DNA from: Dehalococcoidia bacterium
GTDB lineage: Bacteria > Chloroflexota > Dehalococcoidia > Lucifugimonadales > UBA3495
Assembly (NCBI GenBank): GCA_963664625.1
Contig: OY761541.1
Span: 1,410,204 to 1,474,203, forward strand
DNA: 64,000 nucleotides
Direction: 5' to 3'
This document shows, one piece after another, positions 3,165 through 49,292 of the stretch. Every line of letters starts with the position of its first letter. Position 1 is the stretch's first letter. A program made the position numbers and the translations under genes. The notes below the pieces were generated by a model. The model was not told the origin of the DNA, searched no databases, and worked only from the letters and a program-made list of their open reading frames with translations.

Positions 3165-3463
3165 GGACCGGACCTTTCCTCCAAGAAATCCCGCTCCACC
3201 TTGAGCTGGCCGATCTGCTGGTACAACCGGGCCACCAGAGCGTCGTTGTTCTTGCTCTTCTGACCCTTGTCTTTACTGGTCCCGTTGCCCTGGTCAAAGA
3301 TGGCGGACGCCCCATCGACCAGAGCCTTCTTCCATGTCTGAATCTGGTTGGGGTGAACCTCGAACCGGGCAGCCAGTTCGGCCACCGTCTGCTCGCCCTT
3401 CATTGCCTCCAGTGCAACTTTGGCCTTGAAGGCCGGGCTGTGCTTTCTTCTCTCTCTGGACAT
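3161..3463 (-). CDS. IS3-family transposase OrfA (HTH)
   Basis: 100 aa; [46 protein letters not shown] is typical of IS3 OrfA. Its stop overlaps the orfB ATG (ATGA). Confidence 0.85.
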
Positions 3464-4006
3464 TTCCCGCTCCTCCTCGACAGCTGTCGCTGCCCTCAGT
3501 TTAGAAGCAGGACTCCCACTTAGCTACCTGTCCAGTTTCTTGGGTCCACCTCACACGAAAAAGCGAGAAAGCATCTTATTAGGTCTTGCTCACAACACGC
3601 TTCCAGAGAAAAGCTCGACCTTAATCAACTCCTGAACGAACTTCGGGGAACCAACTTCGAGGGCGAAATATCATTGGTCTGTGAGGCACTAGGGGAAGAA
3701 CGACTTAATCACGGTGGGAAAAAAGACTACCACCTTATGGTTGCGGCTTACTTTGCGGACATGCGAAAGACATGGACAGCTCTTCGCCGGGTTTGTGCCG
3801 ACGGGAGTAAGGCCTGCTTTGTAGTGGGAGATTCGGCTCCCTACGGGGTACATGTACCAACTGATAGGTGGCTAGGCGAATTGGCTTTAGACGCCGGGTT
3901 TGAGTCGTACAGCTTCCAAAAGGTTAGAGACCGCAACACCAAATGGAAGAACCGCAAGCACCGTGTTCCCTTGAAAGAAGGGTTTCTGTGGGTACAAGGA
4001 TAGCTG

Positions 4007-4918
4007 GTGGCACAATCACCAACACATAGATTCGGACAGATCATCGGAGACTTGCTGGAAGCGGCCTTATATCCGATTTTGAAGAAATTCGCCGATGAGA
4101 GTGGGCTATACTTGGATCACAAGGGTAAGAGACCTTGCCGCAGTGGTATCAAGTGTACGTGGTTGGACAGTAACGGGAACAAGCACGACTTGGACTATGT
4201 GTTGGAGATGGGAGGGACGCCGGAATCGTTTGGCACTCCGGTCGCATTCATTGAAATTGCATGGCGAAGGTACACAAAACATTCGCGGAACAAAGTCCAA
4301 GAAATCCAAGGCGCGATAGAACCCTTGGCGGAAAAGTATCATCAATCATTACCGTTCAAAGGAGCAGTCTTAGCCGGTGAATTCACCAGTGGAGCCCTGG
4401 ATCAATTGCGATCCCTCGGTTTTAATATCGTCCATTTTCCATACCCAGCGGTAGTAGGGGCATTCAGGGAAGTCGGTATAGACGCAGCTACGGACGAATC
4501 GACGCCAGATGAAGTTGTCCTGCGTAGACTCCGGCAATGGGAGCGACTTTCTAAGCGCAGAAAAGGTCGGGTCGCCGATACACTCTTGGCAACAAGAGAA
4601 ACCGAACTGAAAGAATTCCTCGACGCGCTAACTCAATCGGTATCCCGTAAAATCGAAGAGGTCATTGTGCTTCCCTTACACGGAAGCAGATTACGTGCGA
4701 CATCCATTGCCGTCGCAAAGGCGTTACTTGAGGACTACGAGGAATCTGTTCCTCAGGCTCGGTTTGAACGATATGAAGTGCATATCAGGTTCAGGAACAC
4801 AAACGAGATCGTTGGGAGATTCAATGACAAGGCAAGCGCCATTGAATTCCTTGAGACCTATGAGAATGAAACTCGTCCCTCTCGACATCAGGTGAGCAAT
4901 GTTGGAGGCTCATATTGA
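4007..4918 (+). CDS. putative restriction endonuclease partner of the disrupted methyltransferase
   Basis: 303-aa ORF starting 4 nt after the methyltransferase stop. Possible PD-(D/E)xK-like core (DLDYVLE ... VAFIEIAWRRYTKH). Assignment rests mainly on gene position. Confidence 0.4.
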   Translation: MAQSPTHRFGQIIGDLLEAALYPILKKFADESGLYLDHKGKRPCRSGIKCTWLDSNGNKHDLDYVLEMGGTPESFGTPVAFIEIAWRRYTKHSRNKVQEIQGAIEPLAEKYHQSLPFKGAVLAGEFTSGALDQLRSLGFNIVHFPYPAVVGAFREVGIDAATDESTPDEVVLRRLRQWERLSKRRKGRVADTLLATRETELKEFLDALTQSVSRKIEEVIVLPLHGSRLRATSIAVAKALLEDYEESVPQARFERYEVHIRFRNTNEIVGRFNDKASAIEFLETYENETRPSRHQVSNVGGSY

Positions 4919-7756: not shown

Positions 7757-9178
7757 CTAGCCGCCGCCCCCTCCGCCAACTCCAAGGCCCGGCTCGGTCA
7801 TTGCCTGCGGGTCCAGCAGATCGTCCAATTCATCGTCCGACAGAGAAGTGTTCAGCTTGGCTACCTCACGGATCGTCTTTCCGCTGGCCGCAGCTTCCTT
7901 GGCGATGGACGCAGCGGCGTCATAGCCGATGGCTGGGGCCAAGCCGGTCCCGAGCATCAACCCCTTTTCCACCATCTCCGGTCCTGTTGACGTCGCCTCT
8001 ATTCCCTTGACGCACTGCTCGGCAAAGTTATTCACCGAGGCCGCCAACAGGGAGATAGACTGGAGAATGTTGTGGGCCGCTACCGGCATCATGGTGTTCA
8101 ACTCGAAGTAGCTGCCTTGGGCGGCCACGGCCACCGCGTTGTGGTTTCCCATTACCTGGGCCACCACCTGTATCACCGACTCGGCAATCACCGGGTTGAC
8201 TTTTCCGGGCATGATGGAACTGCCCGGCTGGACTTCCGGCACCGTGATCTCGCCCAGCCCGGCCCTCGGCCCGCAGGCCATAAACCGGATGTCGTTGGCG
8301 ATTTTGTGAAGGCTGATGGCGATGGTCTTCAATACGCCGCTGGCCTCCACGATCGCGTCGATGGTGGCTTGGGCTTGGAAGTGGTTGCTCGTCTCGCGGA
8401 TGGTCACTCCGGTCGTCTCGGAAATCAACTGGCAGGTGCGGGTGGAAAATTCCGGATGGGTGTTGACCCCGGTGCCCACGGCAGTGCCGCCCAAGGCCAC
8501 CTCGGCCAGCGCCTCCTGGGCCCGCTCCAGCCGGCGGATGCCGTTCTCGGCTTGGCCGGCGAACCCCAGGAACTGCTGCCCCAGCCGTATGGGGGTTGCG
8601 TCCTGCAAATGCGTCCGTCCGGTCTTGATTATCGGCCAGAACTCGTCGGACTTGGCGCCCAACTCCGCCTTCAGCCTCTCCAGTCCCGGAATCAGGTCCT
8701 CCTTGATGGTCAGCAGGGCCGCCAAGTGGATGCAGGTAGGTATCACGTCGTTGGACGACTGGCCCATGTTAACGTGGTCGTTGGGGTGCACCAAGCGCGA
8801 TCCCAGGTCGCCCCCCAGGATTTGCGATGCCCGGTTGGCGATGACCTCGTTGGCGTTGGTGTTGGTGGAGGTGCCCGACCCGGTCTGGAAAATGTCCAGC
8901 ACGAAATGCTCGTCCAGCTTTCCGTCAGCCACCTCCTGGGCGGCGGCGATTACGGCCTCGCCAACTTTCTGGTCAAGCAACCCAAGCCCCATGTTAGTGG
9001 TTGCCGCGGCCTGTTTGACCAACCCCAGCGCCCGTATGAACGAGCGTGGAAACCGCAGGTCGCTGATGGGAAAGTTCAGCACCGCCCGCATCGTCGATGC
9101 CCCGTAAAGGGCATCCGCCGGGACCTCCATCGGCCCCATGGAGTCACGTTCTATTCTTACACCAGCGTTGGTTGTCAT
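7757..9178 (-). CDS. fumC: class II fumarate hydratase
   Basis: GSSIMPGKVNPV lyase signature and FQTGSGTSTNTNANEVIANRA (fumarase-like QTGSGT). Start set at MTTNAG (ATG 9178) rather than the ORF-track 9250. Confidence 0.85.
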   Translation of the reverse strand: MTTNAGVRIERDSMGPMEVPADALYGASTMRAVLNFPISDLRFPRSFIRALGLVKQAAATTNMGLGLLDQKVGEAVIAAAQEVADGKLDEHFVLDIFQTGSGTSTNTNANEVIANRASQILGGDLGSRLVHPNDHVNMGQSSNDVIPTCIHLAALLTIKEDLIPGLERLKAELGAKSDEFWPIIKTGRTHLQDATPIRLGQQFLGFAGQAENGIRRLERAQEALAEVALGGTAVGTGVNTHPEFSTRTCQLISETTGVTIRETSNHFQAQATIDAIVEASGVLKTIAISLHKIANDIRFMACGPRAGLGEITVPEVQPGSSIMPGKVNPVIAESVIQVVAQVMGNHNAVAVAAQGSYFELNTMMPVAAHNILQSISLLAASVNNFAEQCVKGIEATSTGPEMVEKGLMLGTGLAPAIGYDAAASIAKEAAASGKTIREVAKLNTSLSDDELDDLLDPQAMTEPGLGVGGGGGG

Positions 9179-9319
9179 ATTTACACTACCTCTTTTCTCA
9201 GGGTTGTCAGTTTTCCATTCCGTAGACTTCCCGACGTATCCGGCGGGCATTGCGGCGGCGATCTAAATTGAACCGTGCCAGTGCGTCAGCAAAAGAAACC
9301 CCTCGAACATACGAAGGCA

Positions 9320-9916
9320 TTAAGCGGTTATCCGGCCTATTGTGACATTCACCAACTTGGCAGGAAACCCCGCCTCCAATTCTTCGTCCAGTGCCGCTTG
9401 CGTCCGTCGCCTCGCGTCCAGGATTTCACACTGCAACCACCCGGTAATAGCCTCTTTGATGTTCACCAAGGCTTCTTCTTCACTGTCTCCCTGGGAAAAG
9501 CAGCCCCGTAGAGCCGGACATGCTACCGAGTAACCCTCTTCGGAATAAGTCAGGACCACGGAGTAAGTCATTTCGGCATCCGGAAATTCAACCCCCACCA
9601 GTTTGTCGGACACCCAACGCTTATCCTCGCTCCCTGAGATGTCAATGGGGACCACTTGGAAGCTATGGGCTTGGTGAGTCTTTTCCGACCAATGAACGTC
9701 GAAATAAGCAGGCCCACCGGTCTGAAGCCGGAAAGCTCGGCCATTCAGCGATTCCAGCAATTTGCTCACCAGAGAATCCAGGTCCAGGCGAGCGGTGCTG
9801 GTGATTCCCATTTCCTCGATCAATAAGGCCATAGCTTCATCGGAAATCTGGGTGGAGCGGAACTCTTCGTCGCCAAACTCAGCGTAAAGAAGTCGCGCTA
9901 CCTTGGTCTTGTCCAT
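9320..9916 (-). CDS. HicB-like antitoxin domain fused to an unknown N-terminal domain
   Basis: The C-terminal YSVVLTYSEEGYSVACPALRGCFSQGDSEEEALVNIKEAITGWL matches the HicB/UPF0150 fold. No hicA lies nearby. Confidence 0.55.
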   Translation of the reverse strand: MDKTKVARLLYAEFGDEEFRSTQISDEAMALLIEEMGITSTARLDLDSLVSKLLESLNGRAFRLQTGGPAYFDVHWSEKTHQAHSFQVVPIDISGSEDKRWVSDKLVGVEFPDAEMTYSVVLTYSEEGYSVACPALRGCFSQGDSEEEALVNIKEAITGWLQCEILDARRRTQAALDEELEAGFPAKLVNVTIGRITA

Positions 9917-9948: not shown

Positions 9949-11499
9949 CTACCGCCCCTCCTTAATCCAGTCCGCCACCCGCTCCGCAATCATCAGCGTG
10001 GTGGCGTTGGTGTTGGCCCGGATTACGTCGGGCATCACCGAGGCGTCCACGACCCGCAGACCCTCAAGCCCGTGGACGTGGCAGTACTGGTCGACCACCG
10101 CCATGGGGTCCTCCGCAACACCCATCTTGCAGGTGCCGGATATGTGATGCTGGGTGTAAGCGTTCCTCAGCATCCAATTGTCCAGGTTGTCGTCCGAGGC
10201 GAAGTCCTCGTCGGTGGGACTCAATCGCTCTACGATCATGTCGCTGAAGGGCGGATTCTCGGATATTCGGACGGCCAGCCGCAAGGCCTCCCTCATCCGC
10301 TGCCGGTCGTAGGGATCGGACAGGTAGTCGTAGTTGAAGTAAGGCTGGACGTGGGGATCGGTGGACTGGAGCCGCAGTTCTCCGGCGGAAACGGCGTTCT
10401 GCAAAGCGCAGGTCAGGCCGAAGTGAAAATCGTCCCCTTCGATTGCTACAGTGGACGGCCGGTGCTCACTGCTCATCAGGATTGGGCTCATCTGGAAGTC
10501 GCCCCGCGTCGGTGAGCCCTCGTTGCTGAACCTCAGGCACGCCTGGATGTTGGGCGCCTCCGGGTCAAGAGCCTTGCCGACACCCTTGAACAGGACGAAC
10601 ACTGCCGGGTGGTCCCGCAGGTTCTGGCCGACGCCCGGCATTTCGTGGACCAGTCCGATGCCCATCGACTCAAGGTGTTCCCGGGGGCCGACCCCGGAAA
10701 GCATCAACAACTGGGGAGAGGCCACGGCGCCGCAACTGACGATTATCTGGTCGCCTTGCACCGCGAAGGTCTCTCCCCCGCTGTCGGCCTCTATCCCCAC
10801 CGCCCGGTTCCCTTCGAACAGGATGCGCCGCGCCGTCACGTTGCCCCTGACGGTCACGTTCAACCGGTGCCGCGCCATGTTGAGGTAAGTCAGGGCGGCG
10901 CTCATCCGCACCCCGTTGATGTTGTTCAACGGGCGCGCGGCTACGCCGGTAGAGTCCGGATGGTTCTGGTCCGGGTCTTCGGGGAATCCCATCCGGGCGC
11001 AAGCGTCATAAAATGCCCCGAAAGCGGGTATCATCTCCTCCCGCTTGTACCGCCGGATCGGGATGGGACCGTCGTTGCCATGAAAGTCCCCTCCGGGAAA
11101 GTCCAGGTCGTTCTCCAGCTTCCTGAAATAAGGGAGAACACTGGTGAAGCCCCACTCGGTGTTGCCCCATTCTGCCCAGTTGTCGTAGTCATCGGGAACG
11201 CCGCGGAACATGACCTGCCCGTTGATGGCGCTGGACCCGCCTGTGGCCCGGCCCCGGGGGATGATGACCGGGTTTGGTTGAAGGGGCGTTGCGGTGGCCT
11301 CGTAGTTCCAGCTATGCGGCCCGTAGGCCGACCGCCACATGTTGTTGCCGTTCTTCAGGTCTATGGGCAACTGCTCGAAGTCCGGATAGTCCGGCCCCGC
11401 CTCCAGCAACAGTATGGACTTGCTGTGGTCTTCGGAAAGCCGCGTCGCCAGCACGCAGCCCGCCGAACCTGACCCGACGATGATGTAGTCGTATTTCAT
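9949..11499 (-). CDS. GMC family FAD oxidoreductase (choline dehydrogenase-like)
   Basis: MKYDYIIVGSGSAGCVLATRLSED Rossmann start and a C-terminal HHISGTCKMG...VVDASVMP motif. Start at ATG 11499; the ORF-track 5' extension is discarded. Confidence 0.85.
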   Translation of the reverse strand: MKYDYIIVGSGSAGCVLATRLSEDHSKSILLLEAGPDYPDFEQLPIDLKNGNNMWRSAYGPHSWNYEATATPLQPNPVIIPRGRATGGSSAINGQVMFRGVPDDYDNWAEWGNTEWGFTSVLPYFRKLENDLDFPGGDFHGNDGPIPIRRYKREEMIPAFGAFYDACARMGFPEDPDQNHPDSTGVAARPLNNINGVRMSAALTYLNMARHRLNVTVRGNVTARRILFEGNRAVGIEADSGGETFAVQGDQIIVSCGAVASPQLLMLSGVGPREHLESMGIGLVHEMPGVGQNLRDHPAVFVLFKGVGKALDPEAPNIQACLRFSNEGSPTRGDFQMSPILMSSEHRPSTVAIEGDDFHFGLTCALQNAVSAGELRLQSTDPHVQPYFNYDYLSDPYDRQRMREALRLAVRISENPPFSDMIVERLSPTDEDFASDDNLDNWMLRNAYTQHHISGTCKMGVAEDPMAVVDQYCHVHGLEGLRVVDASVMPDVIRANTNATTLMIAERVADWIKEGR

Positions 11500-11761
11500 A
11501 AGAAACCTCTGTAAGCCGTTTCCAATAGCAACCGGAACGCGTACCTGAATCAGGTGTACTTGGCACGAGTTCAACACCTGCCGCCCGCAGCGCCTCAGGC
11601 GGTTATATGTTGCCATTCGGCATCGATTTTCGCAACAAACCGAACTCAGGCACATCGGCTCCACATTACGTCGATCCGTCATTATGATCGCCATGTGACA
11701 TGTCATACCTGAATGGACACCGCACGGCAACGACAAATATAATCGTTCCAGAGGTGCAACG

Positions 11762-13672
11762 ATGACTGATGCAGTGGCAAACCTTGAAGAGGTGACTTTC
11801 GAGGAGTTCTGTGAAGAGTGGCTACGAGAATTCACGGAAGGCGATCTTTCACCGTTTGAGAAAGGTCAGCAGTTCGCCATCAAGCTGGTTACCCAATGGC
11901 TTGGCGTAACCGAAGACGACGAAGACTTGGTGTTGTGCGACGGAAGCGGTGATGGCGGCATCGACATCGCGTACCTGCGCCGGGCGGACATTGATGGTGT
12001 TGAACAGGAAGGTCAGGCAGCAGAAGGAGATACATGGTATCTGATTCAAAGCAAATACGGGACGGCCTTCCAAGGTCAAGAGATCATCGTCAATGAAGGG
12101 CGTAAAGTTATAACCACGCTGGCGGGTGAAAACACCCGTCTCTCTGAACACGTGAGTCAGCTATTGGGGCGCTTGAATACCTTCAGGCAACAGGCATCAG
12201 AACGAGACCGCATCATTCTGGTGTTCGCTACCGACCGGCCCATGACAGAGTCGGACCGGCAGGCGTTGAATGATGTCCGCTCCATTGGAAGGGAGCGGTT
12301 TCCTAATATATTTGATGTTGAGGACATATCTCTGCAAACGATTTGGGAGGCTAGGGATACCGTAGACCAAACGAGTATCTCTTTGCCCATCGTTGGCAAT
12401 TTTGTCGATCCAAACGCTGGGCTGCGCGTGGGCACGATTCCATTGACTGATCTATACCAGTTCTTAAAAGCTTACCGGGACAAAACCGGGAACCTTGATC
12501 AACTATACGAAAAGAATGTGCGCCAGTTCCTGGGGAGCCGCAGGAAAATCAACAGGGGGATTGCGGAAACACTGAACGAAAGGCCGGAAATGTTTGGCTT
12601 GTACAACAATGGAATAACTATCGTTGTGTCCGATTACTCCACTAAACCGGATGGTTCATGCTTGTTGCATGACCCGTATGTTGTCAATGGTTGCCAGACT
12701 ACCAAAACGATTTGGCAAGTGCTAGCCCAGAAGCTTGAAGCAGGTGGCACCGGCAAAAGCGAAGTATTGGAGAAATGGCGGGCACGTGCCGACCGTGGGG
12801 TAGTCGTAACCAAGATAGTCAAAAGCAACAACGCTGAGATTACGGAGATCACTAAGTTCACGAATTCACAAAATGCAGTGCGGGACCAAGACTTCATAGC
12901 ATTGCGCGACGATTTCAGAACTTGGGCAACCTCCATGGCTGATCGTTATGGAATATTCCTTGAAATTCAGAGAGGTAGTTGGGAGGCGCAAAAGGTATAT
13001 CAGAAAGCCCATCCGAACTCTCCGGCCTTTGCAGAATCTGTCAATGCCTTTGATCTCATCAAGGTTCTGGGAGCCGGATGGCAAGGAGAACCAGGACTAG
13101 CTTTTAACAAGAACGCGCCTTTCTTACCGGGAGGAACCGTTTTCAGAACCATCACGAACCGTGACGAAAATGATGAGCCGTTTGGTGCTGCGGACCTTTA
13201 CTCTGCCTATAAAATGAAGGTTGCTGCTGATGGTTTAGGGTTTGGCAGGTCTGCGCCTCAGATTCCCAGACGACAAACCAGATTCCTCTTCTATTATGTA
13301 ACGTTAAGATTGCTGTGGGGCATATTGGTGGCACGTCAGCTATCCACATCCCCAGGCGCATTGACTAAAGCTCTCTTGGTGCTCGCCGAACCGAACCACC
13401 AAGAGGTATTCTCACGGCTATTGGAAGATGGGGCTAATTTAGTCGATGACTACTTAACTGCCGGGTCTGAACTGTGTGCACACAAAGAACCTGCTTACAA
13501 CAACGACTTCAACCAAGATATGAACGGATTTTTGAAATGGGAAAGACTGGGTAAGGGTGACCATACGCCTATTCTCACTCAGTTGATTGGAGACTACCAA
13601 AGAGACTCCAGACGGACTCGGGGCGGTAATCCATCTCTAGCCGATTCAGTATATTTGGTTCTCGGCAGCTAA
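11762..13672 (+). CDS. AIPR family abortive-infection protein
   Basis: 636 aa with CDGSGDGGIDIAYL, WYLIQSKYG, LYNNGITIVV and VVNGCQTTKTI, which are characteristic of the AIPR (abortive infection phage resistance) family. The gene is AT-richer than its neighbours. Confidence 0.7.
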   Translation: MTDAVANLEEVTFEEFCEEWLREFTEGDLSPFEKGQQFAIKLVTQWLGVTEDDEDLVLCDGSGDGGIDIAYLRRADIDGVEQEGQAAEGDTWYLIQSKYGTAFQGQEIIVNEGRKVITTLAGENTRLSEHVSQLLGRLNTFRQQASERDRIILVFATDRPMTESDRQALNDVRSIGRERFPNIFDVEDISLQTIWEARDTVDQTSISLPIVGNFVDPNAGLRVGTIPLTDLYQFLKAYRDKTGNLDQLYEKNVRQFLGSRRKINRGIAETLNERPEMFGLYNNGITIVVSDYSTKPDGSCLLHDPYVVNGCQTTKTIWQVLAQKLEAGGTGKSEVLEKWRARADRGVVVTKIVKSNNAEITEITKFTNSQNAVRDQDFIALRDDFRTWATSMADRYGIFLEIQRGSWEAQKVYQKAHPNSPAFAESVNAFDLIKVLGAGWQGEPGLAFNKNAPFLPGGTVFRTITNRDENDEPFGAADLYSAYKMKVAADGLGFGRSAPQIPRRQTRFLFYYVTLRLLWGILVARQLSTSPGALTKALLVLAEPNHQEVFSRLLEDGANLVDDYLTAGSELCAHKEPAYNNDFNQDMNGFLKWERLGKGDHTPILTQLIGDYQRDSRRTRGGNPSLADSVYLVLGS

Positions 13673-23507: not shown

Positions 23508-23565
23508 GCCTGACAACAAACCGGCCCTACCCCCAACCTGTCATTCCCACCTTACTACACGACTC

Positions 23566-23596
23566 GTCATTCCCGCGAAGGCGGGAATCCATACGC
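23566..23596 (+). repeat. REP-A copy (plus half-copy at 23540-23550)
   Basis: gtcattcccgcgaaggcgggaatccatacgc lies between convergent genes. Confidence 0.9.
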
Positions 23597-29266: not shown

Positions 29267-29370
29267 AGCTCCAGCCTCCTGTTTCCTGGTTCCATCTTAG
29301 GAGAGCGCCCAACGTTTGGCAAGGCGGCCCAACCACCGGCAGGCCTATGACACTTTGATGGGTCACGACT

Positions 29371-29440
29371 GTAGGGGCAGGGCTTGTCCCTGCCCTGTGC
29401 CCGGCCAGCCAGCCAGAGCAACCACAAGGGTTGCCCCTAC
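29371..29440 (+). repeat. REP-B composite hairpin element
   Basis: GTAGGGGCAgggcttgtccctgccc...gcaaccacaagggTTGCCCCTAC. Confidence 0.8.
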
Positions 29441-29497
29441 AACCCGGCATCGAATATTGCTAGAATACCCCCTAACCTACCCGTAACAGGAGCTTCC

Positions 29498-30550
29498 ATG
29501 TCGGTAATAGACCTGCGCAGCGACACCATCACTCAACCCACCGAAGAGATGCGCCAAGCCATGGCCAGGGCCGAGGTTGGCGACGACGTTTACCACGAAG
29601 ACCCCTCCATCAACCGGTTGGAGCAACGGGCCGCGGAAATCCTCGGCAAAGAGGCGGGCCTGCTCACCGCCAGCGGCACCATGAGCAACCTGATCGCCAC
29701 CCTGGCCTATTGCCACCGGGGCGACGAGATTGTCATGGGCGATCAGGCTCACATGTTCTGGAACGAGTCCGCCGGCGCGTCGGCCCTCGCCGGCGCCCAG
29801 ATCCGCTTGGTGCCCAACGACGACCAAGGCCGCATCGACCCCGCCGACCTGGAGGCCGCCATCCGCCCGCCGGGCAACATTCACTTCCCCACCACCACTA
29901 TGGTCTGCCTCGAAAACACCCACAACCGTTGCAGCGGTGGCGTCCTGACCCCCGACGACACCGCCAGGGTGGCTGAGGTTGCCCACGCCGCCGGCGCCAG
30001 CGTCCATCTCGACGGCGCACGTATCTTCAACGCCGCCGTCTCCCTGGAAGTCCCGGCCAGCGAACTGGTCAAGGACGTGGACGACGTCAGCTTCTGCCTT
30101 TCCAAGGCCCTCAGTTGCCCCGTAGGCTCCGTGCTGTGCGGCACCCAGGAGTTTGTCGACGAGGCCCGCCGGTGGCGCAAGATGGTCGGCGGAGGCATGA
30201 GGCAGGCCGGCGTCCTGGCCGCCGCGGGACTGGTGGCCCTCGACACCATGATCGACCGCTTGGCCGACGACCACGCCAACGCCCGCAGGCTGTCCCAGGG
30301 CCTCGCCAACATCGACGGCCTGAGCCTGGACCCCGACACCATGCACTCCAACATCGTCATCTTCGACGTAGACCCCTCCGTCGGCTCCGCCGCCGACCTC
30401 ATCGCAGCCCTGGACCGCAACGACGTAAAAGTCTCCTCCCCCGGCCCCCAGTCCATCCGCATGGTAACCCACCGCCACATAACCGGCGAAGACGTGGAGG
30501 AGGCCCTGTCCCGCACGTCCAGGGCGGTGGGGGAGTTGAGGGGGCGGTAG
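29498..30550 (+). CDS. ltaE: low-specificity L-threonine aldolase
   Basis: IDLRSDTITQPTEEMRQAM...VGDDVYHEDPSINRLE...SGTMSNLIA is the beta-eliminating lyase/threonine aldolase pattern. Start at ATG 29498 after aacaggag. Confidence 0.8.
   Translation: MSVIDLRSDTITQPTEEMRQAMARAEVGDDVYHEDPSINRLEQRAAEILGKEAGLLTASGTMSNLIATLAYCHRGDEIVMGDQAHMFWNESAGASALAGAQIRLVPNDDQGRIDPADLEAAIRPPGNIHFPTTTMVCLENTHNRCSGGVLTPDDTARVAEVAHAAGASVHLDGARIFNAAVSLEVPASELVKDVDDVSFCLSKALSCPVGSVLCGTQEFVDEARRWRKMVGGGMRQAGVLAAAGLVALDTMIDRLADDHANARRLSQGLANIDGLSLDPDTMHSNIVIFDVDPSVGSAADLIAALDRNDVKVSSPGPQSIRMVTHRHITGEDVEEALSRTSRAVGELRGR
30452..30550 (+). repeat. direct repeat copy 1 (the native 3' end of ltaE)
   Basis: ~99 bp that recur at 32334-32432 with roughly nine mismatches by eye. 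Confidence 0.85.
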
Positions 30551-30704
30551 GACAATTTGTCTGGAGGGGCGGCGTGCCCTTCCAGACCATTCCCAATGGT
30601 CTCGTCGGTGACCGCAATGATAGAGATAGAGGCTTCATGGCTAATGATTGGCGCAGACTTACAATGTCCATACATCCCCATCTTTATTGTGACAGGAGAG
30701 GCTG

Positions 30705-31850
30705 ATGCCACGTAAACAACTTCGTCGGTCTCCCCATGACGAAGCAATATCAATAGTCGAAAAATTCTCAACGGAAAATCTAGGTGGACGCCTCGAAGCC
30801 TCAGCGGATTGCAATCAATGTAGGGAAAAGCTCACGATCAATTTGGTCGAGGGAGCTTCCAGCATGAGCAGGGAAAAGTTCGTCGGAACAGTGCGCCCGG
30901 ACATCAGCATGTTCGACGAGAACGGGAATCCTGTCAGGTTCATAGAAATCGTAGACAGTCATTCGCCTGAAGAGAATGTCCATGACTACGCCGTGGAAAA
31001 TGACATCGAAGTCGTTGAGTTTCATCTAAGAGCAAAAAGAGAATTCACAGGTAGAAGAAGGAACAGGGCTTTGGATGCGTCCTTGACAGTCAAGGCAAGG
31101 CTACAGGAACTCGCCCATGGCAGACTCCTGATAGATGCTCACAATATCCTTTGTCGAAGACCCAAATGTGGGGAGTGCAGAACTCCACTACCGCTCAGAA
31201 CAGTCACGGTGAGAACTACTGACTGCTGGAAATGTGGCCAACACGTCAATGTTGCTACTGGGGATATAGACGAAGAAGGCCTTACGCAAGATTATTTCAC
31301 GACGGATGAAATCGCATTCGCTCAGGAGAATGGGGTGACCTTAGAACGACGGTACAGCGCCACCGCTGGGGGGAAATATCTAGCCAACATTTGTACAAAG
31401 TGCGACCAAATTCAGGGAAATTGGTTCCTGTACATGGATCCGTTTCACGATAGGTTCATGCTCGAAAAGGCCACTAGACAAGCGTACGGACCTTGTGAAC
31501 AGTGTGCCACCCGTTATTGCCTGACTCATGGAGAATACGTCGATTACAGAAATACCAACCAATGCCCTGCCTGCTTGGAGGAAGCGGAAAGGGTCATGTG
31601 CCCGAACAACCCAGACAGAGAATGTTTCTATCCTCAAAGGTGCGAAGAGGGTGGCTGTTACTTTCTGAACCGGGAACAACGGCAAAAAGAGGAACTAGAG
31701 CGGTTGGAACGCCAGCGGGAACAATGGGAACAACAGCAACAACAGCAACGCGAGGAACGACATCAGAGGGAGCAAAAGCAAAGAGAACAGCGCAAGAACG
31801 AATGGGCGGCGTTTCAGGAATGGTTCAACCAACAGCGGACAAAGCCCTGA
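30705..31850 (+). CDS. multi-zinc-ribbon protein with CoiA/PD-(D/E)xK-like N-terminus and a Q/E/R-rich tail
   Basis: 381 aa with [23 protein letters not shown] (nuclease-like core) and at least four CxxC...CxxC pairs. The C-terminal tail is [36 protein letters not shown]. No family recognised. Confidence 0.5.
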
Positions 31851-31999
31851 AGCAGCCTTTGAGAGGGCGATACCAGAGCCAAGGTCTCCAATCCGGGCTT
31901 GGCACCATACTAACTGTACCTCCTCGTCAAGCCTCTAACGCTAACCCTTACCAATGTATCCATACAAGAGAAGCAAGTTTGACCTCGCACACTATCAAC

Positions 32000-32299
32000 A
32001 TGCAACCACCCATGACCCCCGGCGAAATCCTCCTCGAAGATTACCTCAAGCCCATGGGAATCTCGCAGAACGCCATGGCCCGCGCCATAGGGGTTGCCCC
32101 ACGGGCAATTAACGAAATTGTGCATGGAAGGCGTTCCATCACACCAGCTATGTCAATCCGCTTTGGCGCTTTCTTCGGGCAGTCGGACCAGTTCTGGCAC
32201 GGCATCCAAGTCGAATGCGACTTTCGACGCCTGACTCCCAACAAACAAAACCTCATCTCCGGCATCACCCCCGCTGCATCCCTGACCCGCACTCCCTGA
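32000..32299 (+). CDS. higA: HigA-family XRE antitoxin (orphan)
   Basis: [62 protein letters not shown] is the HigA/VapI pattern. No higB-sized ORF lies upstream. Confidence 0.75.
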
Positions 32300-32333
32300 T
32301 CCCGATTTGGTCGTAACATTCCCCAGTTCTCAA

Positions 32334-32432
32334 TCCATCCGCATGGTAACCCACCGCCACATAACCGGCGAAGACGTAGAAGAGGCCCTGTCCTGCACCT
32401 CCAGGGCGGTTGAGGAGTTGAAGGGGCGATAG
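32334..32432 (+). repeat. direct repeat copy 2 (displaced ltaE 3'-end duplicate)
   Basis: Would encode SIRMVTHRHITGEDVEEALSCTSRAVEELKGR*, compared with SIRMVTHRHITGEDVEEALSRTSRAVGELRGR* in ltaE. Confidence 0.85.
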
Positions 32433-32467
32433 GAAGAACAACAAGCGGGCTCAGTTGACGTCGAATG

Positions 32468-33061
32468 TCACATCCGCCACTGCTGGAAGTGATCGCTGAG
32501 GTTATCCAGAAAATGTCGAAGTGACCGGTCCAATTGTTTGGCTCGCTCGATGTCCATTTCCCGCACTATGTCTTCCGCAAATTCGATTCCGCCAAGACTG
32601 GGTGTAATGCCCGCGTCACGGATGGCTTCTATAAGGCGTTGCTTGTAAAGATGGCGGTCGCATTTCTGCTCCGGTGCATCGCATCCCCTGCCAAATACTT
32701 TTCTGAATGCGGCGCCATCGAGCAGCAACCAGCGTTCGATATGAGGGTCTGGAACGGCGGACACCATCGGAGGCAAAATGGCCGGCTTGTTCAAGTCGAT
32801 GATTTCCTTGGTCCGGTCGTTCAAGCCCCTGCAATTGGCGTCTGTAGCAGCAATAATCAAGTCGGGCAACGGGCCGCCTTGTCTTGCCAAGTCACGCAGA
32901 TAAGTTTGGAGTTCTTGGACCACTCTCCCATGTCCGCGTACCGCGCTCCTCCAGCTTAACCGCACTTCGGTTTCAAATTCTTCGGCAGTGCGTTGTACAA
33001 GCCCTCCGATCACTTGCTGATGCGCATAATCTTCCACGAACAGGGCAATCTCACGCATCAA
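32468..33061 (-). CDS. DUF4276/TOPRIM-like small protein (partner of the ATPase)
   Basis: 197 aa with N-terminal IALFVEDYAH (conserved acidic strand) and LIIAATDANCRG (DxD-like position). Its start overlaps the ATPase stop by 11 nt. The family name is from memory. Confidence 0.45.
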   Translation of the reverse strand: MMREIALFVEDYAHQQVIGGLVQRTAEEFETEVRLSWRSAVRGHGRVVQELQTYLRDLARQGGPLPDLIIAATDANCRGLNDRTKEIIDLNKPAILPPMVSAVPDPHIERWLLLDGAAFRKVFGRGCDAPEQKCDRHLYKQRLIEAIRDAGITPSLGGIEFAEDIVREMDIERAKQLDRSLRHFLDNLSDHFQQWRM

Positions 33062-34361
33062 AGTCCCCTCTCAGGATACGCTCTGATACGGGAAGCTGTT
33101 CCTGAGTGTCATTGAGCGCGTGGGGGATGTCGCCCCCACGCCACAACGCTCCCCAAGTCGTGAACGGGCTGATTTGAGTGCAACGGCCGCTTCGGACAAC
33201 TGGGAATAGAGAATCGTTCGGCAGCATATCAGGCAGAATTGGGGAGTGAGTAGTGACAATGTACTGAGTCGGGCCGATGCCAGAACGTGTTTTCAGCAGT
33301 TCGGCGATCAACTGGATTCGGCGGGGGTGAACTCCGTTTTCCGGCTCCTCAAATCCCACCAGCGATGGGGGGTTTGCAGCGCCAGTGAGGGCCAGAAGTC
33401 CCAGCATACGCAGCGTACCTTCGGACAACACCCTGGAAGGAATGGCGACCCCGTTCTCCTTGAGCCGAAGCTCTACTTCACCTATATCGCTCACGTCCAC
33501 TTCTATGCCGTCGACGTTCGGCATCACGGTGTGGAGAGCCTTTTCTACGGCTTTGAACTGATTCGGTTCCAGTGCTTTGAGAGTATTGAGATAAGCCGCA
33601 AGCTCTTCACCCATTAGTCCTATGTGGCGAACTTCCTTGATGGGGTTGGCTGCTCGCATACGCTCTCTCGGCTCGAAGTAAAAGAACAACCAACTCTCCA
33701 ATTCACGCCGCGCCGCTGTCAAATGGGGATAATGCGGCGGATAGTGCGGCATTGAAAGAATTGTGCGGTCAAGGTAACGGTCATATTGGGTAGGGTGTGC
33801 TTGCCCTTCCAACCGCAGGTGAATCTTTTCTCCCTGCCGCTCCAGGAATGGTTTCCGCTTGCCGGTGGGTTCTCCTATGGAGTTAAGGGCCGCCAAGTAT
33901 TCATCGGTCATGCGCAGAAACCCTGATCTGGGCAGCATCTCGATCTCTACACGATAGCGCAGACTCCTTTCCCGGACCCGTGCGGAACTGGCGCCGGTAG
34001 ATTCCGCGCCCCCACCGCCGCTGGGCCGGCGCATTTCCTGTATTTGCCGGTTTACGGCATTAACGACCGTGTCCGAAAGATGCAGGTCGGCCTCGATGGA
34101 AAAGACCAACCTCTCCTGTTCCAGCGAACCTTTCAGTCCCATTTCGCCAAGGGTGAAAGATTCCAAGGGTTTACCTCGATACGGTGGATCGAAAGCCTCG
34201 TTTAATGTTTGGCTGGTCGCTAGTTTCGACAACAACTGGAGACAATCAAGGAAATTGCTTTTGCCAGCGGAGTTAGGCCCGAAAAGCAGGGTAAGCGGTG
34301 AAAGCTTCACCTCAACATCGCAAAGGGACTTGTAGCCTTTGATGTGAACTCGGTCTAACAT
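33051..34361 (-). CDS. ABC/SMC-type AAA_15/21-like ATPase
   Basis: Walker A FGPNSAGKSN, signature LSEGTLRMLGL, Walker B LVGFEEPENGVHP and H-loop VTTHSP, with a long insertion between the A and B motifs. Confidence 0.75.
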   Translation of the reverse strand: MLDRVHIKGYKSLCDVEVKLSPLTLLFGPNSAGKSNFLDCLQLLSKLATSQTLNEAFDPPYRGKPLESFTLGEMGLKGSLEQERLVFSIEADLHLSDTVVNAVNRQIQEMRRPSGGGGAESTGASSARVRERSLRYRVEIEMLPRSGFLRMTDEYLAALNSIGEPTGKRKPFLERQGEKIHLRLEGQAHPTQYDRYLDRTILSMPHYPPHYPHLTAARRELESWLFFYFEPRERMRAANPIKEVRHIGLMGEELAAYLNTLKALEPNQFKAVEKALHTVMPNVDGIEVDVSDIGEVELRLKENGVAIPSRVLSEGTLRMLGLLALTGAANPPSLVGFEEPENGVHPRRIQLIAELLKTRSGIGPTQYIVTTHSPILPDMLPNDSLFPVVRSGRCTQISPFTTWGALWRGGDIPHALNDTQEQLPVSERILRGDFDA

Positions 34362-34702
34362 GTCGAGTCTCCCACCCGCTAGGCGTCAGGGAAAGAACGG
34401 TGCTTTCTCCTGGATAGTTAAGCAGGTTCTGATAACCAACCAAATGGTACGATGCACCACAAAATTTGTGAAGTGCAAGCACCTTGCCGACAAACAAAAC
34501 CTCATCCCCGGTCCCCGGATGTAACAAGCCGGTATCCTGTCCCTGTACCCCTCTATGACACTTGCCCCTTTCCAACTCCGATAATGCTGCCGTACCATAC
34601 TACCTGCCCAACGTAACCCCCAACCGGTTGGCATTAGTCCCGCCTCCCAATGGGAGGCAATGGGAGGAAACCGGATGTACAATGGTCAACGGAGAAACCA
34701 CT

Positions 34703-35416
34703 ATGACCACGCCCATCAACACCTTCCAGGACATTCTGGACGCCTTGGAGCGCGACCCCGCGCTCAGGGACGCTCTGCGCCGTCACATCCTCAGCGAAGA
34801 GCTGCTCCAGTTGCCGGCGGCATTCGCAGCATTCGTTGAGGCCCAGAGAAACTTCAATGAGCGGGTAGATGCGTTCATAGAAACGCAGACACGATGGAAT
34901 GAACGGGTGGATACGTTCATAGAAACGCAGACCAGGTGGAACCAAGAGCAGACCAGGTGGAACGTAAACACTGAAGCCCGGATGGGCCGGATGGAAAGCG
35001 ATATGAGCAGCCTGAAGGGATACTACGCCAGGTCCCACACAATCCAGGACGCACCAGGCATAGCCGCTGACATGGGGCTGGAGTACGTCCGCACACTCAC
35101 CAACGACGATCTGCGGCGGATGGCAGGCAACAGCCTGCCCAGGGACACGGCCCGCAGCTTCCGCAACGCGGACTTGGTCATCGAGGCGACCGACGGGGAC
35201 GAGACCCGCTACATCGCTATGGAAATCTCCTTCACCGCCGATCGAAGAGAGGTGGACCGGGCGCTGCGGAACGCCAACCTTATCAGCCTGTTCACCGGCA
35301 AGACGGCGCTGCCCGCAGTGGCCAGCGTCAGAAACGACCACGACATCCAAGCAGACCTGGACGCGGGAATAGTGTACTGGCACCCGCTGGAAGACCGGAC
35401 TCCGGCGGTCAGCTAG
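34703..35416 (+). CDS. coiled-coil protein with C-terminal nuclease-like domain (paralogue of 48573-49292)
   Basis: Colinear with 48573-49292: NTFQDILDALERDPALRD ~ NTVIARIIEELNANPELK, and ADLVIEA..YIAMEISFTADRREVDRALRNA ~ ADYVLYG..AAVVEVSITIDRHDVDRAAERA. Start chosen at ATG 34703. Confidence 0.55.
   Translation: MTTPINTFQDILDALERDPALRDALRRHILSEELLQLPAAFAAFVEAQRNFNERVDAFIETQTRWNERVDTFIETQTRWNQEQTRWNVNTEARMGRMESDMSSLKGYYARSHTIQDAPGIAADMGLEYVRTLTNDDLRRMAGNSLPRDTARSFRNADLVIEATDGDETRYIAMEISFTADRREVDRALRNANLISLFTGKTALPAVASVRNDHDIQADLDAGIVYWHPLEDRTPAVS
34859..34942 (+). repeat. 2 x 42-bp tandem repeat in the coiled-coil gene
   Basis: Encodes ERVDAFIETQTRWN / ERVDTFIETQTRWN, followed by a partial third unit. 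Confidence 0.8.
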
Positions 35417-35547
35417 GTCCCAAAGAACACTTCACCCCGGAGATTTTTAGACAGCCTGGCGCCGCCAGTGTCCCCACTGTCAAAGCTGAATGTCAGGAAA
35501 TGTCCGCAAATGTCCGGCGTTTCAAAATTTAACGGGTTGGAAAAGGA

Positions 35548-35817
35548 ATGCTTATGACAATCAGGAAGGAAGACGTCTCGGCCGCAGGCCGTGCTATATA
35601 CGATCAACTACGTGAACGGCTGGAAGAGTCGGAAAATGGAAATTTCATAGCCATAGACCCAGTCAGCGGCGATTACGAGATAGACGCCAACCCTACTGCC
35701 GCATGGAGACGCTTGGAGGCGCGCCATCCAGGAGTGGAATCGTACACGAGGCGCATCGGCCAGCGCGACCAATATCGAATGGTGAGCATCAGGCTACCCC
35801 ACCGAACAAATGATTAG
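35548..35817 (+). CDS. small protein upstream of and overlapping the clan-AA protease gene
   Basis: 89-aa ORF whose stop overlaps the protease ATG by 8 nt. No motif recognised. Confidence 0.5.
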   Translation: MLMTIRKEDVSAAGRAIYDQLRERLEESENGNFIAIDPVSGDYEIDANPTAAWRRLEARHPGVESYTRRIGQRDQYRMVSIRLPHRTND

Positions 35818-36178
35818 AGGGAGAGTCACTGCGGAACTGAATCCGCTGGTCACTATCGAGATTGCCGATGGCAATGGGGCTTTTCGTCCACTGGATGTCC
35901 TTCTTGATACGGGGTTTGATGGCGAACTGGCATTGCCTTCAGACGTGATTGGGTCTCTGGGCATACCCCATAGAGCAGAAGTCGGGCTTGTCTTGGCCAA
36001 CAGTCAACGCATCCAAGCTTATACATACGGAGGTATGGTGTCGTGGCACGCCCAGCAACGAGAAGTAGAGATCGTCGAAACTGCTGGGGAACCATTGCTG
36101 GGAATGGCTTTGCTCTTGGGTAGCAGGGTCTCAATGGACGTGCGCATAGGCGGCGAAGTGTTGATAGAACCAGCGTAA
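35810..36178 (+). CDS. clan AA (retropepsin-like) aspartic protease, AF_0612-type
   Basis: VLLDTGFDGELALP carries the DTG active-site motif. The 122-aa size and layout match the bacterial/archaeal retropepsin-like family. Confidence 0.7.
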   Translation: MIRGRVTAELNPLVTIEIADGNGAFRPLDVLLDTGFDGELALPSDVIGSLGIPHRAEVGLVLANSQRIQAYTYGGMVSWHAQQREVEIVETAGEPLLGMALLLGSRVSMDVRIGGEVLIEPA

Positions 36179-36265: not shown

Positions 36266-36922
36266 TCAGATGCCGTTGTCCCACCCGTCCACGGCGCAGA
36301 CTTCAGCCAGCGGCTTGCGCGTCACCGGGCCGAAGGCGCCCCGGGGGTAGCCCAAAGGCATACAGTAGACTACTTGGGCGGTGTCGGGGATGCCGAACAA
36401 CTCGTGGACCCTCTCTTCCACCACCGGGTGCAGGGTGGCAATGGTGCCGCCCACGCCGAAGGCTCGGGCCGCCAGCAGCATGTTCTGGGCCGACGGGATG
36501 ACCGACCCCGCCGCTTGCGCGCCCTTGCTGGTGGCGCACAGCAGCACCATCACCGGCGCGTTGCCGATCTCGTTGGCCAGCCGCATCGCCGAGCGCATGG
36601 TGTTCTTCCCCGGCGGAATGTCCTCCGGGCCGTTGATCCCCGCGTCCTTCCGCTTGGCCCACCACGCCTCGTGGTATAACTCCCCCAGCTTCTGCCTCAT
36701 CTCGGCATCCTTGACGATGATGAAGCGCCAAGGCTGGGCGTTGCCGCCGTTGGGAGCGCGGATGGTGGCCTCCATGATGTCCCGCATCACCTCTTCGGGA
36801 ATGGGGTCGGGCTTGAAGCGGCGTATGGCACGCTGCGTAAATAAGGCTTCACCCAAGGGAATAGTGTTGAGACGTTCCGCGGTTGTCACTTCCTCTTCCT
36901 CCTGTGGCCGCCGGTCTGGCAC
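36266..36922 (-). CDS. nitroreductase family protein
   Basis: FTQRAIRRFKPDPIPEEVMRDIMEATIRAPNGGNAQPWRFIIV is a classic nitroreductase N-terminus. Confidence 0.8.
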   Translation of the reverse strand: MPDRRPQEEEEVTTAERLNTIPLGEALFTQRAIRRFKPDPIPEEVMRDIMEATIRAPNGGNAQPWRFIIVKDAEMRQKLGELYHEAWWAKRKDAGINGPEDIPPGKNTMRSAMRLANEIGNAPVMVLLCATSKGAQAAGSVIPSAQNMLLAARAFGVGGTIATLHPVVEERVHELFGIPDTAQVVYCMPLGYPRGAFGPVTRKPLAEVCAVDGWDNGI

Positions 36923-40756: not shown

Positions 40757-40783
40757 GTCATTCCCGCGCAGGCGGGAATCCAC
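40757..40783 (+). repeat. REP-A copy (second of a pair)
   Basis: gtcattcccgcgcaggcgggaatccac. Confidence 0.9.
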
Positions 40784-40875
40784 CGTCCGCTCCTGAGGAG
40801 GTGGCGGCGGACGGCGCAATAATATTATGATGTCCTCACCAATTTAGCTTGGCAATGGCTTGCAAGGGATAGATC

Positions 40876-42198: not shown

Positions 42199-42435
42199 AT
42201 GAGAACAGTCATATCAATTCCGGATTCAGTAGTTGAAGCGGCCGATTCCCTAGCAAAGAATCAGGGAATTTCAAGAAGCGAATTCTTCAGACGAGCGATC
42301 GAAACTTACATAGCTTCTTGCCAGCCGTCAAACGTCCAAGCGACCCTTGACGCCATTTATAGTCAAGAAGAGTCCAAGGTAGATGATTTACTCGCTGGGC
42401 TGCAATGGGCATCGTTGCCCAAGGAAGATTGGTAA
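42199..42435 (+). CDS. ribbon-helix-helix (CopG/MazE-like) antitoxin
   Basis: ISIPDSVVEAADSLAKNQGISRSEFFRRAIETYI is an RHH motif. Its stop overlaps the mazF ATG (TAATG). Confidence 0.75.
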   Translation: MRTVISIPDSVVEAADSLAKNQGISRSEFFRRAIETYIASCQPSNVQATLDAIYSQEESKVDDLLAGLQWASLPKEDW

Positions 42436-42773
42436 TGCATCGTGGTGAGGTATGGTGGGCGGCACTTCCGGAACCACTAGGTTCCGGTCCGGGTTTTAGA
42501 AGGCCGGTCGTCATAGGCCAGATTGATCAATTCAACGCCAGCCGCATCAACACAGTTATTGTTATTGCCGTTACGTCAAATTTGAGGCTCGCTAATGCTC
42601 CAGGCAACGTGTTTCTGGATGGCGCAAGTTGTGGGTTGCCAAAGGATTCTGTGCTTAATGTTTCTCAGGTTTTAACCATCGACAAGTCATCCTTGACTGA
42701 ACGGATCGGAAGATTACCCAACCATACAATCGACGCAATGGATACAGGACTGCGGTTAGTCTTGGGCCTGTAA
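42435..42773 (+). CDS. mazF: MazF/PemK-family endoribonuclease toxin
   Basis: RGEVWWAALPEPLGSGPGFRRPVVIGQ...VIVIAVTSN...DSVLNVSQVLTIDK is the PemK pattern. Confidence 0.8.
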   Translation: MHRGEVWWAALPEPLGSGPGFRRPVVIGQIDQFNASRINTVIVIAVTSNLRLANAPGNVFLDGASCGLPKDSVLNVSQVLTIDKSSLTERIGRLPNHTIDAMDTGLRLVLGL

Positions 42774-48572: not shown

Positions 48573-49292
48573 GTGAGCACCAACGCCGGACCTCACCCCA
48601 ACACTGTAATTGCCCGCATCATAGAAGAGTTGAACGCCAACCCGGAGCTGAAGCCCCTCCTGCTCCGAGTAATGCTGACTGAGGAATTTCTGTTGCTACC
48701 CGCCAAGGTCGACCGGCTGGCCGAGTTGTACAGCGAACTAGCCGGCACGGTCAACGGGCTAGTATCCACGGTCAACAAACTGGCCGACACAGTAAGCGAA
48801 CTAGCCGCCAAAGTTAACATCTTGGAAGTCAGGGTCAACCGGGTGGAGGGACAACTTGGAAACCTGCTGGGCGAGAAGTACGAGCGCCGCATTGCCCGCT
48901 CCATTCGCAGCAAGGCCCACTCGGAGCTAGGCATCCGGCGGGCCCAAGTGCTGCAGGGCGAGACCACCACCGATTACGAGTCCTTGCTCGACGCCATTCT
49001 GGAAGCGAAATCCGCCGGGGTCGTTACACCTGAAGAGACAGATTCCCTGGAACGGGCGGACTATGTACTCTACGGCACAGACCTGACCAACGGACTGCCG
49101 CGAGCGGCAGTGGTGGAGGTGTCCATCACCATAGACCGACACGACGTAGACCGGGCCGCAGAGCGGGCCGGCACCCTGGGGCGGGTGATGGACTGCCCCT
49201 CGGCTGCGGCCGTAGTCGGAAACGACATCAGCGAATTCGACCGCCGGCGGGCGGAGGCCGTCGGCGTCAAGGTATTGATTATCGCCGAGTAA
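48573..49292 (+). CDS. coiled-coil protein with C-terminal nuclease-like domain (paralogue of 34703-35416)
   Basis: See 34703-35416. GTG start. Heptad-like LAELYSELAGTVNGLVSTVNKLADTVSELAAKVNILEVRVNRVEGQL. Confidence 0.55.
   Translation: MSTNAGPHPNTVIARIIEELNANPELKPLLLRVMLTEEFLLLPAKVDRLAELYSELAGTVNGLVSTVNKLADTVSELAAKVNILEVRVNRVEGQLGNLLGEKYERRIARSIRSKAHSELGIRRAQVLQGETTTDYESLLDAILEAKSAGVVTPEETDSLERADYVLYGTDLTNGLPRAAVVEVSITIDRHDVDRAAERAGTLGRVMDCPSAAAVVGNDISEFDRRRAEAVGVKVLIIAE

Follow-up and report, generated by a model that had tools for sequence, protein, structure and literature searches.

Homology-facilitated illegitimate recombination (HFIR) combines one homologous anchor with one illegitimate join and can duplicate or delete recipient sequence. 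It is described from the transformable bacteria Acinetobacter, S. pneumoniae and P. stutzeri (references in PMC5361080) and from E. coli conjugation (PMC3240628), and both HFIR and orphaned 3' ends have been proposed for the Rhs, contact-dependent inhibition (CDI) and type VI secretion system (T6SS) arrays (PMC5361080). A feature resembling such orphan arrays occurs in a 64,000-nt stretch of a Dehalococcoidia bacterium (GCA_963664625.1, contig OY761541.1, positions 1,410,204 to 1,474,203; hereafter the window), in which the tail of ltaE, a gene of the low-specificity threonine aldolase type, is present twice. The interval between ltaE and a nitroreductase gene is a hot spot that exchanges small, integrase-less defence and toxin-antitoxin cassettes among related Dehalococcoidia. 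With a probability of roughly 0.55, the duplicated tail is an old scar of two cassette alleles joined in tandem at this hot spot, and not the footprint of an integrase. Loci of related genomes are cited by number (L001, L002 and so on).

The intact housekeeping gene ltaE (29498-30550, + strand; Pfam PF01212, Beta_elim_lyase, E = 3e-107) is the left anchor of the hot spot. A repeat search returned one direct-repeat family of 114 nt at 89% identity, the members of which are the functional last ~37 codons of ltaE with the stop (c1, 30439-30552, +) and a non-functional ltaE 3' fragment (c2, 32321-32434, +). The fragment was also recovered by blastn, where the best local alignment of the two copies spans 104 nt at 91.3% identity. 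A 41-nt core is exact (30455-30495 and 32337-32377), and none of 100 shuffles of the window gave a match to it at three or fewer mismatches. The copies differ by 13 substitutions over 110 nt (30443-30552), eight of them at third codon positions. An earlier note on this DNA, made from the letters alone, had described a recurrence of the last ~33 codons with roughly nine changes; eight substitutions are counted in that part (30452-30550), which agrees well, and the similarity to ltaE begins at 30439/32321, ~13 nt before the start given there.

Past the ltaE stop, sequence reading and cross-genome comparison place a GC-rich hairpin (30559-30587, +; flank type 'alpha'), which was missed by a simple terminator scan; the same comparison indicates that hairpins differ among ltaE alleles. 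The flank that follows c2 is of another type, 'beta' (32435-32467, +), homologous to the sequence past the functional ltaE stop in L168 (window 32331-32459 matches L168 7381-7509 at 90.7% identity). Two other interpretations of the repeat were abandoned. The sequence upstream of 32321 is a higA flank common to L002 and L003, so c2 does not belong to an extended paralogue of ltaE. The hairpins past each copy were also considered as integron-like elements; this was dropped, as an integrase is absent and the stems, judged by eye, look like ordinary, allele-variable gene-end structures.

A second duplication, overlooked in the earlier note, involves the antitoxin gene higA: its 3' end (32238-32262) recurs at 34487-34511 with 92% identity, just upstream of the ATPase gene of HEC-01, a two-gene candidate system of PADLOC. 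The copied segment B, consisting of the last ~20 codons of higA and ~21 nt of flank (32238-32320, +), recurs downstream of HEC-01, where repeat search and blastn detect B', a remnant of the duplicated higA 3' end (34487-34511, +). In the window, a further ~60-75 nt of B' have been lost between two CCGG-containing repeats; in L001 and L164, B' is complete through the higA stop. Because the higA 3' end is also duplicated, the order of the locus is A-X-B|A'-Y-B', where A is the ltaE 3' end, X the zinc-ribbon gene, A' is c2 and Y the HEC-01 pair.

The junction between B and A' (32316-32326, +) joins the higA flank to ltaE codon ~314 and shows CCGG-type microhomology. The higA flank in L002 and L003 reads ..CATTCGCCGG.. 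(in longer form ...CCGTAGCATTCGCCGGTTGCCGG...), and ltaE at the matching point reads ..CCCCCGGCCCCCAG.. (...CTCCCCCGGCCCCCAGTCC...). The junction itself is ..CATTCCCCGG-CCCCA.. in L164 (...CATTCCCCGG-CCCCAATCC...), CATTCCCTGG in L001 and L168, and CATTCCCCAG in the window. By these readings, the B|A' join lies in a CCGG microhomology of 4-5 nt. CCGG motifs are found both at this illegitimate junction and at the later deletion in B' (34505-34515).

A scan with LtaE, at one genome per species, yielded 80 loci, all from metagenome-assembled genomes (MAGs) of Dehalococcoidia or Chloroflexota, one of them titled SAR202. The orthologues are 69-98% identical, and upstream synteny is conserved in most. 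When the ltaE tail of each locus was compared by blast with its own 20-kb surroundings, a second tail within 10 kb appeared in L001 and in none of the other 79. Two additional genomes, L164 and L168, were found via zinc-ribbon homologues. The window, L001, L164 and L168 have c2 and the orthologous junction in common, at a DNA divergence of ~12-14%. DNA identity among these four is 85-91% around the locus and 85-88% around the junction, so the arrangement is old and has become fixed in lineages at the species level. Between L164 and the window, collinearity extends over 9.7 kb (88% identity). L001 (98% LtaE identity) has the order ltaE, HNH-like open reading frame (ORF), higB, higA, c2, HEC-01, complete higA 3' remnant and nitroreductase.

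The nearest outgroups, L002 and L003 (92% LtaE identity), carry other cargo after ltaE, followed by an intact higA contiguous with its downstream flank, and have neither a second copy of the ltaE tail nor HEC-01. Window positions 32000-32328 and 34505-34611 map to the contiguous segment 17347-17779 of L002, the flank resuming at 34505/34541. The DNA that is extra relative to the outgroups thus comprises c2, HEC-01 and the duplicated higA tail, not the zinc-ribbon gene and higA. In more distant relatives, an intact higBA pair lies downstream of ltaE. Cargo has turned over in both slots of the four genomes with c2: slot 1 (between ltaE and higA) holds the zinc-ribbon gene in the window, L164 and L168, and an HNH-like gene with higB in L001; slot 2 (after c2) holds HEC-01 in the window, L164 and L001, and Methyltransf_34 with DUF1848 in L168. 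In the outgroups, slot 1 is occupied by a putative cytosine methyltransferase, a Vsr-like endonuclease and two large ORFs (L002; named by eye only) or by a four-gene cassette (L003). Six related genomes have six different cargo combinations between ltaE and nitroreductase, which bears out the earlier note in its suggestion of a defence-cargo hot spot.

The same note stated that c2 retains its open frame and stop. This is true of the window (SIRMVTHRHITGEDVEEALSCTSRAVEELKGR and the stop) and fails in L164 and L001, where c2 has a 1-nt deletion and the stop TAG has become CAG; therefore, the frame that is open in the window lacks conservation as a coding sequence. Distances between the c2 copies (0.18-0.20, vs 0.07-0.10 between the c1 copies) fit neutral decay, and c2 is a decaying pseudogene fragment without a coding role. 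Permutation of genome pairings gave no significant sign of concerted evolution between c1 and c2 (observed value 396; 390-401 in 24 permutations). Occasional conversion is hinted at only by local patches, namely the exact 41 nt of the window, a GCGGG motif common to the two copies of L001, and 30 nt over which B and B' of L001 are identical.

L168 constitutes an exception to the decay. Its c2 has an intact stop and 12-15 differences from the functional copies, vs 19-28 for the c2 of L164 and L001, and is as near to functional copies as these are to one another. For ~95 nt past this c2, L168 shares homology with what comes after c1 in L001, and c1 of L168 bears the flank seen behind c2 in the window, L001 and L164. 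The simplest reading is that a crossover inside c2 with incoming 'ltaE 3' end-flank-cargo' DNA replaced slot 2; the pseudo-3' end would thus seem to serve as an additional arm for homologous exchange.

From this anatomy we infer both the pathway of recombination and its direction. Cassettes appear to be exchanged via conserved homology arms, the left one made up of the ltaE 3' end and the downstream hairpin and the right one of higA and its flank. In the ancestor of the window, L001, L164 and L168, two versions of the interval would have been joined head to tail, version one being 'ltaE-X-higA-flank' and version two 'ltaE-HEC-01-truncated higA-flank'. A single illegitimate join at the CCGG microhomology would have fused ltaE codon ~314 to the higA flank, ~21 nt beyond the stop of higA. 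Ordinary homologous recombination probably closed the other end, in the manner of HFIR of incoming DNA. The product, A-X-B|A'-Y-B', would contain the ltaE tail twice and the higA tail twice. Joins made by HFIR fall at short GC-rich microhomologies. The homologous anchor may have been ltaE, in which case c2 is the displaced original, as the earlier note had it, or the downstream flank, in which case c2 hitch-hiked with HEC-01. Once formed, c2 would constitute a second landing pad, at which cargo-bearing ltaE DNA of a relative recombines and replaces slot 2 only. The locus shows what stacking by HFIR should leave behind, namely a decaying orphan 3' fragment of the anchor gene, a junction with microhomology and heterogeneous cargo between conserved arms.

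Several points weigh against this joining of two alleles. The resident and the incoming version are indistinguishable from the data, which leaves the polarity of the event ambiguous. The single allele 'ltaE-HEC-01-truncated higA' was found in 0 of 80 genome loci, in 0 of 80 metagenome loci of HEC-01 and in none of three close HEC-01 contexts, a sampling that is limited and not decisive. No natural competence or other route of DNA uptake is known for these uncultured organisms. In a genome of 65% GC, 4-5 nt of microhomology are weak evidence by themselves, and the case of L168 is based on about 200 nt.

A tandem duplication followed by replacement of cargo would yield the identical A-X-B|A'-Y-B' structure with the same single novel junction, and is the most credible of the alternatives, viable if less likely. 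Here, unequal or illegitimate exchange between sister chromosomes at CCGG would have doubled the DNA that begins at ltaE codon ~314 and ends ~21 nt beyond higA. In the second unit, HEC-01 would later have taken the place of X and of the 5' three-quarters of higA. Bacterial genomes very commonly undergo tandem duplication at short repeats, and c2 falls inside the range of ltaE alleles of its own clade. However, two extra illegitimate junctions are needed for the replacement by HEC-01, duplications of this kind are unstable unless selected, and the intermediate A-X-B-A-X-B was found in no genome.

The earlier note had interpreted the repeat as the trace of an island integrated at the ltaE 3' end. 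The part of the claim that stands is that c2 marks a scar of DNA rearrangement at that site; the integrative element itself does not, as higA is resident in the outgroups. In its most explicit form, a small element composed of the zinc-ribbon gene, higA and a replacement ltaE 3' end would have used a tyrosine integrase, since lost or acting in trans, c1 and c2 being attL and attR. The repeats do begin inside a gene and end just past its stop, like those of elements that target gene 3' ends, and the DNA between them is AT-richer than ltaE, as the note had reported (GC ~0.49-0.57 vs ~0.68); the low-GC tract, which it had overlooked, extends well past c2 to ~36200. Homologues of the zinc-ribbon gene also reside elsewhere in islands, most of which contain large serine recombinase genes.

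Such an element is nevertheless improbable. The att model does not predict the symmetrical duplication of the higA 3' end around c2 and HEC-01, and higA with its flank is resident in outgroups that have no c2. No integrase or recombinase domain was detected by Pfam in the ORFs of the island (30.5-36.9 kb), nor in the precomputed Pfam annotation of L164 and L168, nor in L001, where the ORFs were read and three of them scanned. The window contains no tRNA genes, and its 28.5-37 kb segment has no Rfam match. The absence of an ltaE-linked duplicate from the other 79 loci means that recurrent att use of the ltaE 3' end was not observed. An empty site, which the earlier note had proposed to seek in related ltaE loci, was not found, and both copies are fixed in four genomes ~12-14% diverged, an outcome that the note itself had named as refuting its model. 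The recombinases linked to zinc-ribbon homologues are serine recombinases, which are not known to make ~100-nt repeats, and DNA homology to those islands covers the zinc-ribbon ORF only. An artefact of assembly, such as a chimeric join or collapsed strain variants, might be suspected in MAGs, particularly as ltaE of L168 has frameshifts of the long-read type, but its probability is negligible, and it is excluded because four independent assemblies from different samples all have this junction, each lineage with substitutions and indels of its own.

The content of slot 1 agrees with the earlier statement that only a 381-aa zinc-ribbon ORF and an orphan higA lie between the copies of the ltaE tail; both were found, without higB. 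ZnR381 (30705-31850, +) is a Cys-rich protein of 381 aa with several CxxC zinc ribbons and a C-terminal coiled coil. It has no Pfam, PADLOC or PHROG family, and its only NCBIfam match is sub-threshold. Its family is large, has no name and comprises at least 191 proteins, with P65, D66, E81, D84, H86 and many Cys residues invariant; none of the 120 homologues listed has a Pfam domain or a usable source name. Exact-sequence look-ups of LtaE, ZnR381 and the 100%-identical P0001 returned no match. The AF2 model (mean pLDDT 77.6) has only weak fold matches, of which those with an annotation are nearly all restriction enzymes or nucleases of the PD-(D/E)XK type; the N-terminal domain is predicted to be probably PD-(D/E)XK-like. 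The islands in which homologues of 72-75% identity reside (L161-L163, L169-L171) are of the RHH-PIN-ZnR-208aa type, a module of which the zinc-ribbon gene is a constant member there.

The orphan antitoxin gene higA (32000-32299, +; TIGR02607, 90.4 bits vs cut-off 47.7) is the internal anchor of the hot spot. The HigBA type II toxin-antitoxin system is incomplete in the window, with HigA present and HigB absent. No higB adjoins higA there, and the match to L001 picks up again no more than 20 nt upstream of the higA start; higB adjoins higA in L001, L017, L021 and L025.

Slot 2 carries two adjoining, overlapping genes that satisfy the gene composition of HEC-01 in PADLOC. HEC-01B (32468-33061, -) encodes a TOPRIM-like DUF4276 protein (PF14103 below the Pfam cut-off; PADLOC, E = 5.7e-6), and HEC-01A (33051-34361, -) an ABC-type ATPase of the AAA_21/AAA_15 kind (PF13304; PADLOC, E = 2e-51). 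A defence role of the pair at the ltaE locus is assumed here; HEC-01 (ABC ATPase and TOPRIM-like protein) gave no protection in a published assay (10.1101/2024.01.29.577857). Relatives at 85-87% identity are found in other Dehalococcoidia genomes at a different locus, beside an acyl-CoA dehydrogenase gene, and their homology to the window is confined to the two ORFs. A metagenome scan with the ATPase yielded 80 loci of 58-77% identity from varied environments; since none of them has ltaE or higA nearby, the donor allele was not found.

Beyond B', the original downstream flank of higA (34512-34611, +) is collinear with L002 17666-17779 and L003 16798-16868. Further low-GC cargo follows (34562-36178, +), consisting of orf284, without an assigned family, orf89 and orf122, the last clan AA aspartic protease-like; the presence of these three varies between genomes. 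The high-GC right core border of the hot spot is the nitroreductase gene (36266-36922, -; PF00881), 91-95% identical in L001-L003. A paralogue of orf284 (34562-35416) lies in the same window at 48573-49292 (26% identity, E = 3e-11), and distant relatives (31-35%) are located upstream of ltaE in L066, L069 and L070. The 89-aa and 122-aa ORFs are paired at 35548-36178 (the latter matching TIGR03698 below the cut-off), and the same pair occurs 40-1,500 nt downstream of ltaE in L010, L016, L020 and L036; it may be a mobile two-gene module.

Other features were observed around the anchor gene. Just upstream of ltaE, a variable intergenic region contains a 28-nt inverted repeat (29370-29441, 75% complementary); homology to relatives stops at 29325-29450, and in L168 the synteny there is entirely different. 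The ltaE DNA is 94% identical between the window and L001 (29449-30552 vs 9952-11055), while neighbouring genes are 86-88% identical, a difference that could result from stronger constraint or from recent recombination across the anchor gene. In L002, an 11-copy tandem array of a 68-nt unit (9158-9904, 96% matches) separates a hydrolase gene from ltaE. Within the unit lies a REP-like palindrome (GTCATTCCCGCGCAGGCGGGAATC), and a 27-29-nt part of the unit is present as single intergenic copies in the window (23565-23591 and 40757-40785); the array is not CRISPR-like, because the whole 68-nt unit repeats. The slot-1 ORFs of L002 that by eye resemble a cytosine methyltransferase and a Vsr endonuclease lie at 11200-12390.

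Many small low-GC islets are interspersed between high-GC core genes elsewhere in the window (1391-4918, 9320-9916, 11762-13672, 42405-42773 and 59508-61182). Their contents include a DNA methylase fragment and two ORFs without known family, split by IS3-type transposase-like ORFs (by eye only), as well as a HicB-like antitoxin, an AIPR abortive-infection protein, a MazF/PemK toxin and another AAA_15/AAA_21 ATPase, which has a partner of 176 aa. The ORFs that were scanned include no integrase.

A direct repeat of a gene 3' end around AT-rich cargo is insufficient to call an integrative element, as the same signature arises via illegitimate or homologous recombination at a hot spot of cassette exchange. 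The two-slot arrangement (ltaE, higA and pseudo-ltaE) in uncultured Dehalococcoidia of marine or sponge type is one in which defence and toxin-antitoxin cassettes turn over without a recombinase, and its cargo includes a widespread, unnamed family of nuclease-like zinc-ribbon proteins of 370-380 aa. It is possible, though we put it forward tentatively, that the 'ltaE 3' end + hairpin' constitutes a portable homology handle, which would let any copy in another species capture downstream cassettes. A pseudo-copy of the handle would then add a slot, so that integrase-less defence cassettes could be stacked as well as swapped. If the handle were general, it would explain the movement of tight two-gene defence 'islets' in marine genomes with few mobile elements, and the ltaE locus is a possible natural test case for their spread.

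As a recombination scar in a hot spot of defence cargo, the feature at ltaE is ordinary in kind, and among known systems it resembles the orphan arrays of Rhs and T6SS. Its variable defence cargo between conserved core genes is that of core-gene-flanked defence hot spots ('defence islands'). With gene-3'-end integrative islands, which have attL and attR and a tyrosine integrase, it shares a repeat that spans the 3' end through the stop and AT-richer DNA in between; in contrast to them, it has no integrase, recurrent site use or empty site, the right end of its supposed element is an ancestral resident, and a second, overlapping pair of repeats derives from higA. The likeness to HFIR lies in the single anchor and single illegitimate join, the difference being that at ltaE the process is deduced from a fixed natural scar and not from an experimental system. 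The Rhs and CDI orphan modules and the orphan-immunity arrays of Vibrio cholerae T6SS likewise use a conserved gene as homology anchor without an integrase, an incoming 'gene 3' end + cargo' pushes the older 3' end and its cargo downstream as an orphan, and orphan protective genes remain, here represented by higA. Unlike in those arrays, the anchor at the ltaE locus is a housekeeping metabolic gene and not a polymorphic toxin, the duplicated 3' end carries no variable domain, the cargo consists of defence and toxin-antitoxin genes, and a single stacking event has produced two slots instead of a long array.

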